Part shown: piece by piece, positions 4,490 to 34,500 of the stretch | How positions within the stretch are numbered: position 1 is the stretch's first letter | How the letters are laid out: each line of letters opens with the position of its first letter | Source: a virus | Lineage: Duplodnaviria > Heunggongvirae > Uroviricota > Caudoviricetes | Length of the DNA stretch: 64,000 nt | Strand: one strand, 5' to 3' | Virus record (IMG/VR): IMGVR_UViG_3300008120_000059 | Span: 64,001-128,000 of that record | Position numbers and translations under genes: made by a program | The notes under the pieces: model-generated | What the model saw: the letters and a program-made list of their open reading frames with translations, nothing else | The model's database searches: none | What the model was told of the DNA's origin: nothing

Positions 4490-6205
4490 CTACTTTTTCA
4501 AGTTTTGTTCGAATAATTTATAAATTTCTGTGAGAATGTCCAACTCGGACCTTGACTTTTGATATCTAAAATCAAATAACTTGTAAAAGTATTCAGATAT
4601 TCTATTTTCTTTTTCTTCCAATTTAACAAAATAGTACGCCTCATAGAAAAAATTCCACATATATTCATAGTGGGTTCCTTTCTCCTTGAAGAATATTTTT
4701 TCTTTATCAAAATTGGTGATTATTTTATTCCAACACCAATTAAAATGGTTTCGTTGGTCTATTTCGTCATAAAGTACATCAGAACCTAAAAAGGTTTCGT
4801 CTACTAAATCATATAAAGAAGATAGGAAATCATAAAATAATATTATTTTATCCCTATTAATGTTGTAGGTTCTATACCAAATCTGAGTACTTTCGTTGTA
4901 TCCGATGATTTTTTTCATTCTCGAGATTTCCTCATTCACAATTGAAGTCATTGTAGTTTTAGATTCATTCACACTCTTTACTTTTAAAGGTTGAACTCCT
5001 CTTGCTCCATGGAATGCTTCAGGTGCGTCTTTCTCTTTTTCTTTTTTTCTTTCAGCCGATTTACTTAATCTCTCTCCTGTTTTTGTTTTTATAACGTTAG
5101 CAGCATTTTGTGAGTTACCCATTTTTGAGTCACCTTCTAATGCCATTTTTAATCTTTTTTTGAATGATTCTGATGGTTCAAAATCATAATTTAAATCTAA
5201 AAGGGTACCACCCTTCATATTATCATCAATATACTCTTCTTGTTTCTCAGTTGGGTTTACCGCCATTTTTTCACCTTTACCAACTTGTTTTGGAAACTCA
5301 GGATTATCATTACCATCAAATGTTGATGCTTTTTTCAGTTTTTTCTGAACATCTTTAATTGCGTCGTCATTTTCTTTTTTAGAACCACTCTGAGCTTTCT
5401 TAGTTACCGCAATACCGGGTACCGCCTCACTTAGATTTTTTTTTGAATCAATTACCATTTTTTTAATCAAAGAAACCATTTCACTTTCAGTAAGTCTAAG
5501 AACCGATTTCTTAGATTCATACATACCAGTACCACACTCTGAACACATTCCTTCCTCATTCATGGGTGAACCACACTCACTACACGTACCCATTTCACCT
5601 TCATTTGTATCAATATCTTTAGTGATTGTTACTTTATGCATTTTACCACTTCCTTTAGGGAATTCGAATTCTTTTTTACCAGCATCTCTCGCTTTATCAG
5701 CAGCCAAAACAAACGCGCTTGATTCCTCCACATTTGTTTCTTCTTCCATATAACCTTGTCCACACTCATCACAAACACCTTCCTCTTCTTCAAGTTGTTT
5801 CCATGATTCTTCAACATTATGTACTTTTCCGTTAAATTTAATTTCTTTTAGACCTTTTTCTTTAGCGGATAAAATGGCTTCTGCCATGCTCGATACTTTA
5901 ATTTTTTTCATTTTTGTGGTTTCTTTATTTTCTTCTAATTCTTCTCCCATCTGGTCTAATTTATCAATCATTTCAGTTGGTGAATTATATTTTACTTTTT
6001 CGATTATGAACTCCTTTTTAGGATGTTTCTTTTTATAAATATCCAAATGTTGCATTGCAATTTCTTCGGATTCAAATGTTTCAACGGGTTCTCCCTCGCA
6101 AGTAATTTGAAACATATCTTGAGATTTTTTATTTTCTTTTAATATGGTTCTTTTTACTTCGTCAAATAATGACTCCGAAATGATATTTGATATATTCTTT
6201 TTCAT
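4490..6205 (-). CDS. probable virion/internal head protein, apparently fused to a second, aromatic-rich helical protein
   Basis: K/E-rich N-terminal part with CxxCG motifs, then an abrupt composition switch at about 4883. Confidence 0.6.
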   Translation of the reverse strand: MKKNISNIISESLFDEVKRTILKENKKSQDMFQITCEGEPVETFESEEIAMQHLDIYKKKHPKKEFIIEKVKYNSPTEMIDKLDQMGEELEENKETTKMKKIKVSSMAEAILSAKEKGLKEIKFNGKVHNVEESWKQLEEEEGVCDECGQGYMEEETNVEESSAFVLAADKARDAGKKEFEFPKGSGKMHKVTITKDIDTNEGEMGTCSECGSPMNEEGMCSECGTGMYESKKSVLRLTESEMVSLIKKMVIDSKKNLSEAVPGIAVTKKAQSGSKKENDDAIKDVQKKLKKASTFDGNDNPEFPKQVGKGEKMAVNPTEKQEEYIDDNMKGGTLLDLNYDFEPSESFKKRLKMALEGDSKMGNSQNAANVIKTKTGERLSKSAERKKEKEKDAPEAFHGARGVQPLKVKSVNESKTTMTSIVNEEISRMKKIIGYNESTQIWYRTYNINRDKIILFYDFLSSLYDLVDETFLGSDVLYDEIDQRNHFNWCWNKIITNFDKEKIFFKEKGTHYEYMWNFFYEAYYFVKLEEKENRISEYFYKLFDFRYQKSRSELDILTEIYKLFEQNLKK

Positions 6206-7493: not shown

Positions 7494-8088
7494 TTTTAAA
7501 AATTAGTCTAAAATTAAATGATGGGTTTATATCTGTATAAATATTTGAGAAATTAGATTTACACACTACACCATTAAATTTAATAGCGCTTTCAAGATAT
7601 CCCTGAGAAGGTACTATATTTTTTGGTATACCGTGGGATTCACATATATGTTCACACAATGATGAAATTGATAATACTTGGTCATCATTATACCTATCCC
7701 AAAAATAATGGTTTCTCCAATTTCTAACGAAAGGTTCACATCTGTAAGGGTCTCCAATCCAATTATGCATGAAACCTGTTACGGTATTTTTACTTAACCA
7801 TCCTAAATTTTCAACCGCAATTTTAATAAATTGTTTGTCAATATAAGGTTCGTCAAATGTATTTGAATAATAGTTGGTATCGAAAAGTTGGTAGATTGTA
7901 CCTAATTTAGTGACAATAAAGTGTGGTATTTCGTCGTATTTACCACACTTCCTGTACTTTAATTTATTAATGAAATCGTCCGCACGTCTATTAGTGTCGT
8001 ACAGTAATATTTGGGTTTTTTTCGTTCTGCGACGAACAACATTTAAAGTTTTATCATCTAAACCTTCTACGTTGTGTATTTCCAACAT
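7483..8088 (-). CDS. N-acetylmuramoyl-L-alanine amidase (Amidase_2/PGRP) fold protein, Zn ligands apparently lost
   Basis: PHFIVTKLGTIYQ, IKIAVENLGWL, WDRYNDDQVLSI..LC, DINPSF follow the amidase_2 layout. Expected His positions read LLYDT and CKSN. Confidence 0.65.
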   Translation of the reverse strand: MLEIHNVEGLDDKTLNVVRRRTKKTQILLYDTNRRADDFINKLKYRKCGKYDEIPHFIVTKLGTIYQLFDTNYYSNTFDEPYIDKQFIKIAVENLGWLSKNTVTGFMHNWIGDPYRCEPFVRNWRNHYFWDRYNDDQVLSISSLCEHICESHGIPKNIVPSQGYLESAIKFNGVVCKSNFSNIYTDINPSFNFRLIFKNEQ

Positions 8089-8206
8089 TTCTAGTTAACC
8101 TTTTACTGATAACAGAAGAAATGTCGTTGTCTTCTGTATTATTTATTTCCCCATTGTCCAAACCAAAGTTTTCCAACGATTCCTCCTGTTGTGGGGACTC
8201 TTCTAA
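8054..8206 (-). other. open -1 frame extension (50 codons) reachable by slippage at the A10 run
   Basis: LEESPQQEESLENFGLDNGEINNTEDNDISSVISKRLTRNVGNTQRRRFR*, no ATG, fills the 8089-8202 gap. Confidence 0.55.
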
Positions 8207-9312
8207 TTTTTTTTTTCTTCCTCAATGGGAAGTTGTTCATCTTGTATTGGTTCCTCAACAATCGGTTCAGGTGTTTCAATTATTTCCTCAACAATCGGTT
8301 CAGGTGTAACAATTGGTTCTTCAATTACTATCGGTTGTTCTTCAACTATTACAGGTTGTTCTTCAACAATTGGTTCTTCAATTACTATCGGTTGTTCTTC
8401 AACTATTACAGGTTGTTCTTCAACAATTGGTTCAGGAGTAATAGTTGTTTCTTCAATTACTATCGGTTGTTCTTCAACAATTGGTTCAGGTGCAATAGTT
8501 GGTTCAGGTGTGACAATTGGTTCTTCAACTATTACAGGTTGTTCTTCAACAATTGGTTCAGGAGTAATAGTTGTTTCTTTAACAACCACCGGTTCTTCTT
8601 TAATTAAATGGTCCTCAATTAAAAAAACATCTGATGAGTCATTATCCTCTTCTTCCTCAGGAGTTTCAACATCTTTTGGTTGGGGGGTTTTGTTAAGTAA
8701 TTTTTCTAAAATATCTAAATCTTCTTGAGAGATTCTAACTCGAGAGACTTCACCAACAATGTCTTTAGCATCTACCACCGGTGTTTCTTCACCAACGGGT
8801 TCAGGAGCGTCTTTTACCACTGGTTGTTCAACCTCTACAGTATTTTTCTCACTCTGAGTAAACTTAACTAACATATGTAGAAAAGAAAGTGAAATGATTG
8901 GTAACATACCTCCAGCGAAAAACGCTAAAAATCTTTTGTGACCAATCATGTCTGTAGGGTCAACACCAATATATTCTAAAAGTGGTGAAACTAACTCAAC
9001 CCAAGAAATAAATGCTTGACTCGTAATATCAATATATGAATAGGCGAAATAAATATTACCAATAAATTGAATGAGGGTTACAATACCAAATGGGAAATAT
9101 ACTTTTCTACCCATATCAGCTGATATTGCAGCCAACGCAGATAATGCGGCAATTTCGATACCTATTGATAAATAGATAGCCCAACTAATTGGGTTTGAAA
9201 TTCCGTACCATTTAGTTACGTGTGATATTGAAACCAACGCAACAGTTATAATTGGTATTAAAAACGCAGATACTATTAATGTTTTATAATTTTTATTAAT
9301 CCAATTTTTCAT
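8203..9312 (-). CDS. multi-pass membrane protein with acidic Pro/Glu repeat tail
   Basis: Several N-terminal TM stretches, then PEPIVEEQPVIVEE repeats; ends EEEKKN-TAG at an A10 run. Confidence 0.8.
   Translation of the reverse strand: MKNWINKNYKTLIVSAFLIPIITVALVSISHVTKWYGISNPISWAIYLSIGIEIAALSALAAISADMGRKVYFPFGIVTLIQFIGNIYFAYSYIDITSQAFISWVELVSPLLEYIGVDPTDMIGHKRFLAFFAGGMLPIISLSFLHMLVKFTQSEKNTVEVEQPVVKDAPEPVGEETPVVDAKDIVGEVSRVRISQEDLDILEKLLNKTPQPKDVETPEEEEDNDSSDVFLIEDHLIKEEPVVVKETTITPEPIVEEQPVIVEEPIVTPEPTIAPEPIVEEQPIVIEETTITPEPIVEEQPVIVEEQPIVIEEPIVEEQPVIVEEQPIVIEEPIVTPEPIVEEIIETPEPIVEEPIQDEQLPIEEEKKN
8249..8598 (-). repeat. coding tandem repeat (TPEPIVEEQP(V/I)(I/V)(V/I)EE)
   Basis: Near-identical DNA units such as ggttgttcttcaacaattggttca repeated several times. 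Confidence 0.9.
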
Positions 9313-9596
9313 TTAACACTATTTTCCAACTTGCTTATTTCATTATCAATTTCAGTTTGACGGTTTACATCTAAAATTTTTCTATCAGTTGCTTGAATCA
9401 TTCTTTTTTCTGATTTCAATCCTTCAATTCTTAACCTAACATCCAATTCTTCTTTGGTGTAGGTAGAATCTTTAATTGACTCAATTTCCTTTCTCATTTT
9501 AGAGAGTTCTCTTCCGTCGCCACAACTTTTAAAAAATCCTAAAAGTGCAACAACCAAAACGATTATTGTGAAATTTTTTTGAATAAAATTTTTCAT
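9309..9596 (-). CDS. putative lipoprotein/membrane-anchored coiled-coil protein
   Basis: Hydrophobic leader IIVLVVALLGFF followed by KSC (lipobox-like Cys). Confidence 0.6.
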   Translation of the reverse strand: MKNFIQKNFTIIVLVVALLGFFKSCGDGRELSKMRKEIESIKDSTYTKEELDVRLRIEGLKSEKRMIQATDRKILDVNRQTEIDNEISKLENSVK

Positions 9597-9605
9597 GTTT
9601 TTTAT

Positions 9606-10418
9606 TTATAAATAGTTTAATAATCCATAACTGTCGTTACGAAGTTTCTTTAGTGCTTTATCACGTAGTTGTCTAATACGTTCTTTAGTGCATCCGAATT
9701 CATCACCCAAGTCTTCTAAATTCATTTCAATACCGTTCAACCCATAAGACTTTTCAATAATGACCTTTTCTCTATCGTCAAGGATTGAAAGCATTTGAGA
9801 AACTCTTTTTTTAATTTCTTCAGACGTATTTAAAATGTCTTCAGGGTTATCAGCGTTGACATTAATGATGGTATCGATTAATTGGTCTCCCTCTTCATTT
9901 ATTTCATCATTCAAGTTTACACAATGAGGTAGTACTATTTCTGCCCCATTATCTTCATAATTGATAAAGAAAGGGTCATCAACATTTAACTGTTCATTTT
10001 TCTTTCTTTTTTGATTTTCCTGAATAATGTTTGACGGCAGTCTTATCATCCTTGAATTCTCGTTTAGAGAAGCCATAATAGATTGTTTAATCCACCAAAC
10101 AGCATATGAAATAAATTTGTAACCACTGTTAGGGTCAAATCTTTCGGCGGCTCGTATGAGACCGATATTACCTTCGGATATTAAATCAATTAAATCCATA
10201 CCATTGTTTTGATATGATTTAGCGACGGTGATTACAAAACGTAGATTACCCACTACGAGTTCGTTTAACAAATCGACTCTTTCCTTCTTAGGTAGGTCTT
10301 TATTTTTTAAGAGTTCGAAGACTTCATCCTGTCTTTGGTGAGTAATTACCTTAATCTTTCGGATGTCTTTGATGTAGTTCTGAATTTCTTCAGTGTTGAT
10401 TAGTAATGTTTTGGCCAT
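9606..10418 (-). CDS. RNA polymerase sigma-70 factor (RpoD/RpoS-like, lacking region 1.1)
   Basis: NLRFVITVAKSY, DLISEGNIGLIRAAERFD, KFISYAVWWIKQSI, region 4 LEDLGDEFGCTKERIRQLRDKALKKLR. Confidence 0.93.
   Translation of the reverse strand: MAKTLLINTEEIQNYIKDIRKIKVITHQRQDEVFELLKNKDLPKKERVDLLNELVVGNLRFVITVAKSYQNNGMDLIDLISEGNIGLIRAAERFDPNSGYKFISYAVWWIKQSIMASLNENSRMIRLPSNIIQENQKRKKNEQLNVDDPFFINYEDNGAEIVLPHCVNLNDEINEEGDQLIDTIINVNADNPEDILNTSEEIKKRVSQMLSILDDREKVIIEKSYGLNGIEMNLEDLGDEFGCTKERIRQLRDKALKKLRNDSYGLLNYL
9608..9614 (-). promoter_or_regulatory. TATTTAT box
   Basis: 11 nt upstream of ATG 9596, overlapping the last codons of the sigma gene (TAT TTA TAA). Confidence 0.5.
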
Positions 10419-31500: not shown

Positions 31501-34500
31501 CAGTGTTGGTTGGTGTTACTGTATTTGTTGGAGTATTGGTTGGGGTATTGGTTGGTGTAAGGGTAGGACTAACAGTGGCTGCCGGAGTTCTTGTTGGAGT
31601 AACAGTATTGGTTGGGGTATTGGTTGGTGTAACAGTATTAGTCGGCGTATTGGTTGGAGTATTTGTTGGTGTGACTGTATTCGTTGGAGTGTTAGTAGGT
31701 GTAAAAGTTGGTGTGACGGTTCTTGTTGGTGTATTGGTTGGTGTAACGGTATTGGTTGGGGTGTTTGTGGGTGTAAGGGTAGGACTAACAGTGGCGGCCG
31801 GAGTTCTTGTTGGAGTCACTGTATTGGTCGGTGTGTTGGTGGGTGTGACTGTGTTAGTAGGTGTATTTGTAGGTGTATTAGTTGGTGTGACTGTATTTGT
31901 TGGAGTGTTTGTTGGGGTGTTTGTGGGTGTAACAGTATTAGTAGGAGTATTGGTTGGTGTTACAGTTTTGGTTGGAGTGTTAGTAGGTGTAACAGTATTA
32001 GTAGGTGTATTGGTAGGTGTATTGGTTGGTGTAACAGTATTCGTAGGAGTATTTGTTGGAGTATTTGTTGGACTAACAGTAGCTGCTGGTGTTCTTGTTT
32101 AGCTGCTGGTGTTCTTGTTGGGGTTACGGTATTAGTTGGGGTTACAGTGTTAGTCGGAGTGTTAGTTGGTGTATTCGTTGGTGTAACGGTATTTGTTGGG
32201 GTGTTAGTTGGTGTATTTGTTGGTGTTACTGTATTGGTAGGAGTATTTGTAGGACTCAATGTAGGTGTAACTGTATTGGTCGGTGTTAAAGTTGGTGTAA
32301 CTGTCTTTGTTGGTGTATTAGTAGGTGTCTGAGTTGGTGTAACTGTATTAGTCGGAGTATTAGTAGGCGTAACAGTGTTTGTTGGAGTATTGGTTGGGGT
32401 ATTTGTAGGAGTTACCGTATTGGTTGGGGTGTTTGTAGGAGTATTGGTAGGGGTGACAGTCTTGGTTGGAGTATTTGTGGGGGTAACAGTATTTGTTGGG
32501 GTAACCGTATTAGTTGGTGTGTTGGTTGGAGTATTTGTTGGGGTTAGAGTTGGTGTAACAGTTTTTGTTGGTGTATTAGTTGGAGTAACGGTATTTGTTG
32601 GGGTATTGGTTGGGGTATTTGTAGGAGTTACCGTATTAGTCGGGGTATTAGTAGGCGTAACAGTGTTTGTTGGAGTATTGGTTGGGGTGTTTGTAGGAGT
32701 TAAGGTAGGTGTAACAGTCTTGGTTGGGGTGTTGGTTGGTGTAACTGTATTAGTAGGTGTGTTAGTTGGTGTAACTGTATTAGTAGGTGTATTTGTTGGA
32801 GTATTTGTTGGGGTAACAGTATTCGTAGGAGTATTGGTCGGTGTTAATGTAGGAGTAACAGTTCTTGTTGGAGTATTTGTTGGGGTAACAGTATTCGTAG
32901 GAGTATTAGTAGGTGTTAATGTAGGTGTAACAGTCTTGGTCGGAGTGTTTGTAGGAGTATTTGTTGGTGTAACAGTGTTTGTTGGTGTTACCGTGTTTGT
33001 AGGAGTATTGGTAGGAGTGTTCGTTGGAGTATTGGTTGGTGTTAATGTAGGTGTAACAGTATTAGTAGGTGTTAATGTAGGTGTAACAGTCTTGGTTGGG
33101 GTGTTTGTAGGAGTATTTGTTGGTGTAACGGTGTTCGTAGGGGTAACTGTAGGACTCAATGTAGGGGTTACAGTATTGGTCGGAGTATTAGTAGGTGTTA
33201 ATGTAGGTGTAACAGTCTTGGTTGGTGTATTGGTTGGGGTAACCGTGTTAGTTGGTGTGTTGGTGGGTGTTACTGTATTAGTAGGAGTAACTGTAGGACT
33301 CAATGTAGGAGTTACAGTCTTGGTTGGTGTATTAGTGGGTGTGTTTGTTGGTGTAACAGTATTGGTTGGGGTAACCGTGTTAGTTGGTGTGTTGGTTGGA
33401 GTATTTGTTGGGGTATTGGTTGGGGTGACTGTCTTAGTCGGTGTATTAGTTGGGGTTACTGTATTTGTTGGTGTAACCGTATTTGTTGGTGTATTTGTGG
33501 GTGTATTGGTTGGAGTTAAAGTTGGTGTTACAGTTTTTGTTGGTGTGTTGGTCGGTGTAACTGTATTTGTTGGTGTATTTGTGGGTGTATTGGTCGGTGT
33601 AACTGTATTTGTTGGAGTATTTGTTGGGGTGTTAGTGGGTGTAACAGTATTAGTAGGAGTATTTGTGGGCGTATTGGTCGGTGTAACTGTATTTGTCGGA
33701 GTATTGGTTGGGGTATTTGTTGGTGTAACGGTGTTCGTAGGGGTAACTGTAGGACTCAATGTAGGGGTTACAGTGTTTGTAGGAGTGTTTGTGGGAGTGT
33801 TGGTTGGGGTAACTGTATTAGTAGGAGTAACTGTAGGGGTGACAGTTTTAGTAGGTGTATTAGTTGGAGTATTGGTAGGGGTTACAGTATTAGTAGGGGT
33901 ATTTGTAGGAGTTAATGTAGGAGTTACAGTCTTGGTTGGGGTATTTGTTGGTGTAACGGTGTTCGTAGGGGTAACTGTAGGACTCAATGTGGGAGTCACC
34001 GTATTGGTCGGAGTATTGGTGGGGGTTACTGTATTAGTAGGAGTATTAGTAGGAGTATTGGTTGGGGTTACCGTGTTGGTCGGAGTTAAAGTTGGTGTAA
34101 CAGTTTTTGTTGGTGTATTGGTTGGAGTTACAGTGTTCGTAGGGGTATTTGTTGGTGTTAGAGTTGGTGTAACAGTTTTTGTTGGTGTATTAGTAGGAGT
34201 TACGGTGTTAGTTGGAGTGTTGGTAGGTGTGTTAGTTGGTGTTACAGTGTTGGTTGGTGTATTAGTAGGTGTCTGAGTTGGTGTAACTGTCTTGGTTGGG
34301 GTATTAGTTGGCGTTACAGTATTGGTTGGGGTTACCGTATTTGTAGGAGTTACGGTATTGGTTGGAGTAACAGTATTAGTCGGCGTTACTGTGTTAGTTG
34401 GGGTGTTAGTGGGGGTAACAGTATTAGTAGGAGTAACGGAATTCGTGGGAGTGTTTGTAGGAGTGTTTGTTGGTGTTAATGTAGGTGTTACGGTTTTTGT

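Follow-up and report, generated by a model that had tools for sequence, protein, structure and literature searches.

A conserved hairpin and A10 run at the end of a phage membrane-protein gene, a candidate site of programmed transcriptional slippage beside an endolysin gene

Described slippage systems and the phage locus

The tssM1 gene of Citrobacter rodentium carries eleven adenines (A11) before a stop codon, its mRNAs contain 10-15 A's, and about 20% of its product is the long form (PMC4256274); in this gene and in tssM3 of Yersinia pseudotuberculosis, slippage by RNA polymerase gives a short and a full-length protein, and both forms and their ratio are needed (PMC4256274). We describe here a site of related layout in a 64,000-nucleotide stretch of Caudoviricetes DNA (positions 64,001 to 128,000 of IMG/VR record IMGVR_UViG_3300008120_000059; the whole stretch is called the window below), in which a membrane-protein gene ends in a run of ten A's (A10) directly ahead of its stop codon, an RNA hairpin abuts the run on its 5′ side, and a conserved coding extension lies in the −1 frame. 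Judging from comparative sequence evidence, we put the probability that hairpin and run form a programmed, hairpin-assisted transcriptional slippage cassette at roughly 0.7. To our knowledge, the established cases of programmed transcriptional slippage are limited to a few bacterial genes, insertion sequence (IS) elements and RNA viruses, and we found no description of such a site in phages in the full-text literature searched.

tssM1 is functionally the closest system, for there too the gene encodes an inner-membrane protein and a poly-A run stands shortly before a premature stop. It differs in being a cellular gene of a type VI secretion system with no stimulatory hairpin described and with an extension that is a folded periplasmic domain, unlike the phage extension, which is a low-complexity, predicted cytoplasmic linker with a basic tail; moreover, tssM1 has neither an overlap with a downstream gene start nor a third product. 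Hundreds of phage contigs share the present family. In an IS630-family element from Roseiflexus, realignment of RNA polymerase is stimulated by a stem-loop that abuts the slippage motif on its 5′ side (Penno et al. 2015, as described in a 2016 review, PMC5009743). At the phage site a stable hairpin likewise stands right against the 5′ side of the motif, an arrangement also seen in intrinsic terminators, but the Roseiflexus motif is the heteropolymer T5C5, lies in a transposase gene and undergoes deletion of one C only, whereas the phage motif is a homopolymer able to slip both ways unaided. Since the phage run is a homopolymer and would be used through insertion, the site shares the Roseiflexus geometry without being a member of that class. 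In the part of the same review on Shigella spa13/spa32, slippage is described as giving a C-terminal extension in 25-30% of cases, the end of which overlaps the start of the next gene, and as strongly affecting the expression of that gene (PMC5009743). This case, together with mxiE, spa33 and mxiA, is the model for the amidase coupling proposed below; it belongs to a type III secretion operon and has shorter runs, and for the phage such coupling is suggested by an invariant overlap of 32 or 29 nt.

In dnaX of Thermus thermophilus it is the short form that arises by slippage, the long form being encoded in frame, an arrangement that six phage contexts with a fused long form resemble. As in dnaX, in paramyxovirus P/V/W and in potyvirus P3N-PIPO/P3N-ALT, one run at the phage locus would feed two to three frames behind a shared N-terminus; these systems differ in their polymerases (a viral RNA-dependent RNA polymerase in the RNA viruses) and genes, and none of them has a 5′ hairpin with A10. 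The lambda G/GT tail chaperone and T7 gene 10A/10B are −1 ribosomal frameshifts in virion or assembly genes, on heptamers. They are alike in that a phage gene gains a C-terminal extension, at a fixed ratio, by a shift near its 3′ end, but the present locus has a run of 9-11 nt, a conserved signal on the 5′ side, and a membrane-protein gene beside an endolysin gene. The holin-antiholin pair S105/S107 of lambda offers a possible functional analogy only, as two isoforms from a lysis cassette that differ in a charged terminal segment tuning the timing of lysis; in lambda, dual start codons produce the isoforms, which are distinguished by their N-termini, whereas the phage protein has 369-419 amino acids and matches no holin family.

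The run and its coding extension

The membrane-protein gene occupies 8203..9312 on the minus strand and in frame 0 encodes 369 amino acids ending ...IEEEKKN, written GAA AAA AAA AAT TAG. The ten A's, the putative slippage or shift site, lie at 8207..8216 (minus strand), and the frame-0 TAG stop at 8203..8205 (minus strand) starts 1 nt past them. Beyond the run the −1 frame stays open over 8054..8206 (minus strand) for 50 codons without an ATG; its translation from the run reads LEESPQQEESLENFGLDNGEINNTEDNDISSVISKRLTRNVGNTQRRRFR up to the stop codon, beginning with LEESPQQ and with the C-terminal end RLTRNVGNTQRRRFR (also given as SSVISKRLTRNVGNTQRRRFR). This frame spans a 114-nt gap ahead of the endolysin-like Amidase_2 gene (PF01510; 7483..8088, minus strand) and overlaps that gene by 35 nt (8054-8088). 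The original prediction had described the ten A's at the gene end, the 50 open codons lacking an ATG, the basic tail, the filled gap and the overlap, all of which are confirmed on the minus strand. One additional A in the mRNA would lead into the −1 frame and a product of about 419 amino acids, while one A fewer or two more would lead into the third frame, whose tail of 22 residues (8139..8207, minus strand), IRRVPTTGGIVGKLWFGQWGNK up to its stop, would give a probable product of about 390. The heptamers A_AAA_AAA and A_AAA_AAT are both in zero-frame phase, in both registers of the run.

Comparison across relatives shows that the extension is coding and part of the same polypeptide as frame 0. 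Differences in its length among relatives are all multiples of 3, and the ratio of nonsynonymous to synonymous substitution rates (dN/dS) lies at 0.2-0.3 when diverged pairs are compared and close to 1 for very close pairs, as expected for a fast-evolving linker. The motifs N[YF]GL[ED], DDLYWESDD and NPNQIIYDLDN are shared across clades well upstream of the amidase overlap, and a basic tail, [KR]K..RNVGN[ST].RR.F[RK] followed directly by the stop (the tail is also given as RNVGNTQRRRFR), ends 68 of 70 complete extensions, which are 50-151 codons long. No start codon in the extension is conserved among the relatives, and extensions of up to 151 codons contain no ATG until late. In every relative examined the amidase ATG stands 32 nt (29 in one clade) before the extension stop, and the last 11 codons of the long form overlap the endolysin start. 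Distant homologues without the acidic region and the run have a similar short basic tail in frame (...KMKKILGK and ...NKLRRQ, each then followed by a stop), from which it appears that the basic C-terminus is ancestral and that the run-bearing clade placed it behind a frame switch.

Three other ways of reaching the extension or the amidase were considered and rejected. In the window, a TTG at 8176 has an AGGAGG-like sequence 5 nt ahead of it and might serve as an independent start, but the codon is not conserved, being TCG or TTA in close relatives. Stop-codon reassignment is contradicted by a frame-0 stop that is TAG or TAA depending on the relative and by further stops downstream. Read-through into the amidase gene, which is in the same frame 0, was discarded because two TAA codons intervene.

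We fetched 126 run-bearing loci from viral and metagenome collections, corresponding to 85 distinct sequence contexts; 107 of these loci have A10, 9 have A9 and 10 have A11, and none has fewer than nine A's. In 79 of the 85 contexts frame 0 reaches its stop 0-16 nt past the run, and in 57 of these 79 the −1 frame becomes open at most 6 nt ahead of the run, mostly owing to a TGA just upstream, so that any shift must fall within the run. The run is found in two codon phases, GAA AAA AAA AAT (EKKN) and TTA AAA AAA AAA (LKKKS), which indicates that the nucleotides, not the amino acids, are conserved. Loci with identical flanks have the same run length in all 78 groups (11 loci of one genotype, for example, are all A10), which marks the run length as a stable genotype, rules out assembly noise and speaks against hypervariable DNA. 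In 110 of the 120 database homologues nearest to the protein, the C-terminus comes immediately behind the motif [DE]..KK(K/N), including cases in which the 40 residues ahead of it show no relationship; another 2 of the 120 are longer fused forms. Recoding at the A10 run, as originally proposed, is thus upheld by the conserved KKN-stop with an open −1 frame (110/120 homologues) and by the conserved basic tail (68/70).

Six contexts have the long form in frame 0 yet keep the run, namely L018, L151, L152 and L171 with A10 and L062 and L063/L064 with A11, the last of these genotypes having been recovered from two independent assemblies. Stops in the other frames lie near the run in these six contexts, and their retention of the run fits a site that feeds several frames whatever the genomic phase. 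L005-type loci also have A11, and in them a shift is still needed. The original prediction had taken an A11 run with a single open reading frame (ORF) as an outcome that would count against recoding; such sequences do occur (L062, L063/L064), but as a minority natural genotype that still keeps the run.

Long A/T homopolymers are depleted in the source record, which comprises 162.9 kb (162,907 bases) in IMG/VR at a CheckV completeness of 53%. We count 2 runs of at least 10 A/T and 9 runs of at least 9, against first-order Markov (Markov-1) expectations of 10.2 and 28.9, a 3- to 5-fold depletion that is consistent with selection against accidental slippage sites. The A10 at 8207-8216 is the only long run in the record at the junction of two long frames; the remaining 8 runs of at least 9 are intergenic, terminator-like or in frame within ORFs, and none of them is recoding-like. 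Given a length of 9-11 and never 7-8, the two codon phases and the depletion of long runs elsewhere, we take the length of the run to be under selection. A DNA search with 2 kb around the site found no match among 50,697 phage records, a protein search gave one distant match only, in an unannotated 462-kb uncultured phage, and a search for related loci with protein P0093 gave no match.

The 5′ hairpin, the third frame and the choice between explanations

The base before the first A of the run ends the 3′ arm of an RNA hairpin, CUUCC-CAUUGA-GGAAG (8217..8232, minus strand), with a folding free energy of −5.4 kcal/mol, z = −2.0 and a spacing to the run of 0 nt. Taking as a criterion a ΔG of −5 kcal/mol or lower with a 3′ arm ending within 3 nt of the run, we find that 52 of 76 distinct upstream sequences pass, as compared to 5.8% of 3040 control windows from the same genes; the loci are mutually related, such that P-values overstate their independence, and the conservative figure is the count by distinct 3′ flanks, of which 24 of 35 pass (binomial P = 4e-22). 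When synonymous codons are shuffled with the peptide unchanged, 10.4 passes are expected and the mean minimum free energy (MFE) is −3.0; the excess of observed passes over these shuffles argues for selection on the structure of the RNA itself. For the 34 nt that lead up to the run we obtain a mean MFE of −6.7 kcal/mol, as compared to −2.3 elsewhere in the same genes (Wilcoxon P = 1e-13). The stems themselves are unrelated between lineages, with the arms CUUCC/GGAAG, CUUUAUCUG/CAGAUGAAG, CUUCGUCA/UGACGAAG, CAACUAACUC/GAGUUAGUUG, GAUCAUAUCC/GGAUGAUGAUC and CAACAUUAG/CUGAUGUUG. In the fused lineages the hairpin tends to be weak or absent (L018, 0.0; L062, −4.4; L063, −0.9; L151, −6.1; L152, −4.7; L171, −6.1 kcal/mol, as compared to the mean of −6.7), consistent with a relaxed need for slippage where the long form is in frame, in a sample too small for a conclusion.

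Downstream of the run, 70-nt folds have z values mostly between −1.7 and +1.3, and none is shared by relatives. A downstream hairpin, UCCCC...GGAGGA, which the original prediction had noted and called weak, is not borne out as meaningful, its 70-nt fold having z = −1.1 and no counterpart in relatives; the 5′ hairpin and the open third frame did not figure in that prediction. We also considered the upstream hairpin and the run as a terminator and rejected this, since the sense RNA has A and not U, and on the other strand the run precedes the hairpin.

The third frame is open in most clades for 20-37 codons that encode basic-aromatic tails, the WFG tail in the window among them. Over bases that the two frames share, 125 substitutions are synonymous only in the third frame as compared to 88 only in the long frame (P about 0.01), and ω is about 0.58 in the third frame and about 0.93 in the long frame, such estimates being crude for overlapping frames. 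In 96 of 118 pairs the peptides of the third frame resemble each other more closely than those of the long frame do, with identities of 0.53 vs 0.41, 0.43 vs 0.36 and 0.47 vs 0.43. In four clades the third-frame ORF exceeds its length in synonymous shuffles by a factor of 2-4; the Thr/Pro-rich clade shows no such excess, and in a few lineages this ORF spans only 2-8 codons. We consider the odds of a functional third isoform roughly even. Of the two C-terminal forms originally proposed, the short and the long are both supported, but the number two is not, there probably being three.

Bacterial RNA polymerase needs long A/T runs in order to slip (PMC6260861). Under the reading that we favor, the host multisubunit RNA polymerase, guided by a phage sigma factor whose gene lies two genes upstream, would copy the T10 template; on the run the RNA-DNA hybrid would be entirely rA:dT, with the nascent hairpin forming immediately behind it, and hybrid and hairpin together would let the transcript realign to yield mRNAs with A9, A10, A11, A12 and so on. 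Faithful mRNA would give the 369-residue protein that stops right after the run, mRNA with one more A the protein of about 419 residues, with 50 extra residues ending in the conserved basic tail, and mRNA with one A fewer or two more probably the protein of about 390 residues with the basic-aromatic WFG tail. The isoforms would share a 4-transmembrane-helix (4-TM) anchor and differ in their cytoplasmic C-terminus, and they would probably set the behavior of a membrane protein of the lysis cassette. Only ribosomes on transcripts with one additional A would cross the amidase ATG, which may couple translation of the endolysin to the rate of slippage. A three-way decoder, in which this one cassette sets a fixed ratio of three C-terminal isoforms and its stutter rate also meters endolysin synthesis, is a tentative elaboration that we regard as possible but doubtful.

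At the level of sequence the locus has what is expected of the slippage class, with a run of about nine or more A/T in coding sequence, a conserved C-terminus in an alternative frame and a shift confined to the run. It also has the in-phase heptamer of a −1 ribosomal frameshift cassette, but stimulators of −1 ribosomal frameshifting lie 3′ of the site, and here we find no conserved 3′ stimulator and a Shine-Dalgarno-like sequence upstream in some clades only. The original prediction had named −1 frameshifting and slippage as alternatives; slippage has the stronger support, since the putative stimulator that is conserved, a hairpin, stands on the 5′ side of the run and not on the 3′ side. A translational shift on faithful A10 mRNA, by −1 ribosomal frameshifting on A_AAA_AAA or A_AAA_AAT or by ribosomes sliding over the poly(A) lysine codons, would agree with a heptamer in phase in both registers and with a frame-0 stop soon after the run, and in the window's clade the 3′ arm GAGGAAG resembles a Shine-Dalgarno sequence such as the one that precedes the shift site of dnaX. 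As sliding varies with how long the A-stretch is (PMC4363877), a conserved run of A9-11 fits this explanation too. Nevertheless, the 3′ arm is not Shine-Dalgarno-like in most clades (GAGUUAGUUG, CAGAUGAAG, GGAUGAUGAUUU), a hairpin abutting the run on the 5′ side would be melted inside a ribosome with its P site on the run, and a selected third frame would require an extra +1 or −2 shift at the same site. We consider it unlikely that translation accounts for the site in this way.

That replication slippage makes the run a DNA-level contingency tract, with A9, A10 and A11 phage subpopulations and one isoform per genome, is suggested by a run length that varies between lineages over just these values, by the six contexts with the long form in frame and by the A11 genotype of L063/L064 from two independent assemblies. 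None of the 78 identical-flank groups, however, shows more than one run length, a figure from consensus assemblies, which hide minority variants and leave room for a minor contribution, and the hairpin selected beyond its codons is left unexplained, such that we find this very improbable. Still harder to credit is the absence of any recoding, with the extension an independent small gene or a non-coding spacer conserved for the amidase start and its signals. The AGGAGG-like sequence 5 nt before TTG 8176 in the window and the overlap of the tail with the conserved amidase N-terminus are in keeping with it, but the TTG is not conserved, in long extensions (up to 151 codons) an ATG appears only late, it is the run and no start codon at which the −1 frame becomes open, conserved protein motifs lie far ahead of the amidase, natural fused forms exist, and the operon is otherwise gapless. 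As for a homopolymer error in sequencing or assembly, or a recent pseudogene, where the true gene is one ORF, the contig is indeed metagenome-assembled and A11 would give a single ORF; with A10 in 107 of 126 independent loci from many samples, L005-type loci that have A11 and still need a shift, and 110 of 120 closest homologues ending at the run, we give this the least credence of all.

Several points weigh against the slippage reading. The sequences show the site, its conservation, a coding extension and the hairpin; that polymerase slips here, in what ratios the products arise and what the isoforms do, we infer from comparative evidence, and A_AAA_AAA is also a good site for −1 ribosomal frameshifting, such that shifting at the level of translation could contribute or even dominate; ribosomes are known to slide on runs of AAA codons (PMC4363877). 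The hairpin in the window is short, at 5 bp and −5.4 kcal/mol, with P = 0.045 as compared to synonymous-codon shuffles, and 24 of the 76 upstream sequences of relatives fail the hairpin criterion. The Roseiflexus hairpin drives a one-base deletion, whereas the phage long form needs an insertion. Conservation of the basic tail is entangled with that of the overlapping amidase N-terminus, and the third frame has support of a statistical kind, which some clades do not provide. Finally, the phage may encode its own RNA polymerase. We detect no RNA polymerase gene in the record, which encodes a sigma-70 factor, and this lends weak support to slippage, because the record is only 53% complete.

The membrane protein, its operon and a possible role in lysis

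The membrane protein has more than 4000 database homologues and consists of a conserved 4-TM domain (residues ~1-160), in which mean column identity is 87%, followed by an acidic region of Pro/Glu/Val/Ile tandem repeats that ends in EEKKN, with the acidic C-terminal half hypervariable. An AlphaFold2 (AF2) model of residues 1-235 (pLDDT 69) has helices at 9-34, 41-64, 68-93, 99-114 and 122-161, from which we predict four to five membrane helices. By the positive-inside rule, given a basic N-terminus, RK in loop 2 and an acidic loop 3, the variable C-terminus would be cytoplasmic. The protein and its extension have no match in Pfam, PHROGs or NCBIfam at E 0.1-1 or better, and they belong to no holin family described in Pfam or PHROG; the AF2 model (residues 1-235) has no significant match among PDB folds, a PDB profile search gave nothing, and matches in BFVD are only to uncharacterised phage proteins and, weakly, to DUF2637. 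The term "envelope gene" of the original prediction is unproven for this 4-TM protein, whose family is unassigned and whose cassette is lysis-like.

The repeats lie at 8251-8652 of the window, with periods of 18, 36, 54-57, 72 and 126 nt, and near-identical homologues (82-95% identity) span 308-369 amino acids, which indicates that the repeat number expands and contracts fast between close phages. A segment ...KDIVGEVSRVRLSEEDLxxLE... is conserved past the membrane domain (window ~8683-8760, residues ~185-210). Several homologues match the Pfam family TacA1, a ribbon-helix-helix-like antitoxin, at residues ~177-235 (27-33 bits, cut-off 21), while the window protein has no match to TacA1 at E ≤ 0.1. 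Proteins of a distant sister group (L025-L060) have 204-276 amino acids and the same 4-TM domain (~45% identity), without the acidic repeats, the A-run or the extension, and some members have a different downstream gene.

The source record, at 162.9 kb and 53% completeness, indicates a very large phage. The gene belongs to a tightly packed minus-strand operon in the order sigma-70 factor (9606-10418), 95-residue N-anchored coiled-coil protein (9309-9596), 4-TM protein, amidase and more small genes; neighbors abut or overlap by a few bases, and the sole gap is the 114 nt filled by the −1 frame. The gene downstream was identified by the Amidase_2 profile of Pfam (PF01510; 30.4 bits vs a cut-off of 26, E = 5.4e-7), and its product is signal-less. 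As to other homopolymers, the second run of 10 in the record is a T10 on the plus strand at G000:C1:5937-5946, outside the window, with an open frame of 36 codons upstream and a different frame of 63 codons downstream. An A9 run (T9 on the plus strand) at 5436-5444 of the window is in frame within a gene for a 571-residue protein (4490..6205, minus strand); slippage there would truncate that protein, and there is no alternative long frame. At G000:C1:25126-25150 and 33075-33100, also outside the window, A9 is followed directly by a GC-rich hairpin, e.g., tcccctttcgggga; these sites, which include several of the longest runs in the record, look like opposite-strand or bidirectional terminators.

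Four predicted TM helices, a charged C-terminus and a gene adjoining that of an Amidase_2 protein might suit a holin, but at 369-419 amino acids the membrane protein is far above the size of typical holins. The neighboring genes, for an N-anchored coiled-coil protein on one side and a signal-less amidase on the other, point to a possible part in lysis, either holin-like or regulatory. In known holins such as lambda S, timing is tuned by charged cytoplasmic tails.

Knowledge of the signals that stimulate slippage was described as very limited in a 2016 review (PMC5009743). At the present locus a terminator-like hairpin and a long homopolymer stand together in a double-stranded DNA phage presumably transcribed by host RNA polymerase, within a natural cassette that spans hundreds of contigs and is rich in covariation; the dozens of natural variants of this cassette in stem, spacing and run length constitute a ready-made mutational series for studying realignment driven by nascent RNA. 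In terms of annotation, automated gene prediction breaks up or shortens this gene in nearly all genomes, and 110 of the 120 closest entries end at the run. Should the isoforms govern lysis or the dosage of endolysin, they would represent a new way for phages to time lysis, and if the three-way decoder is true, transcriptional slippage would be a lysis timer in a widespread family of giant phages, analogous to P/V/W of the paramyxoviruses.

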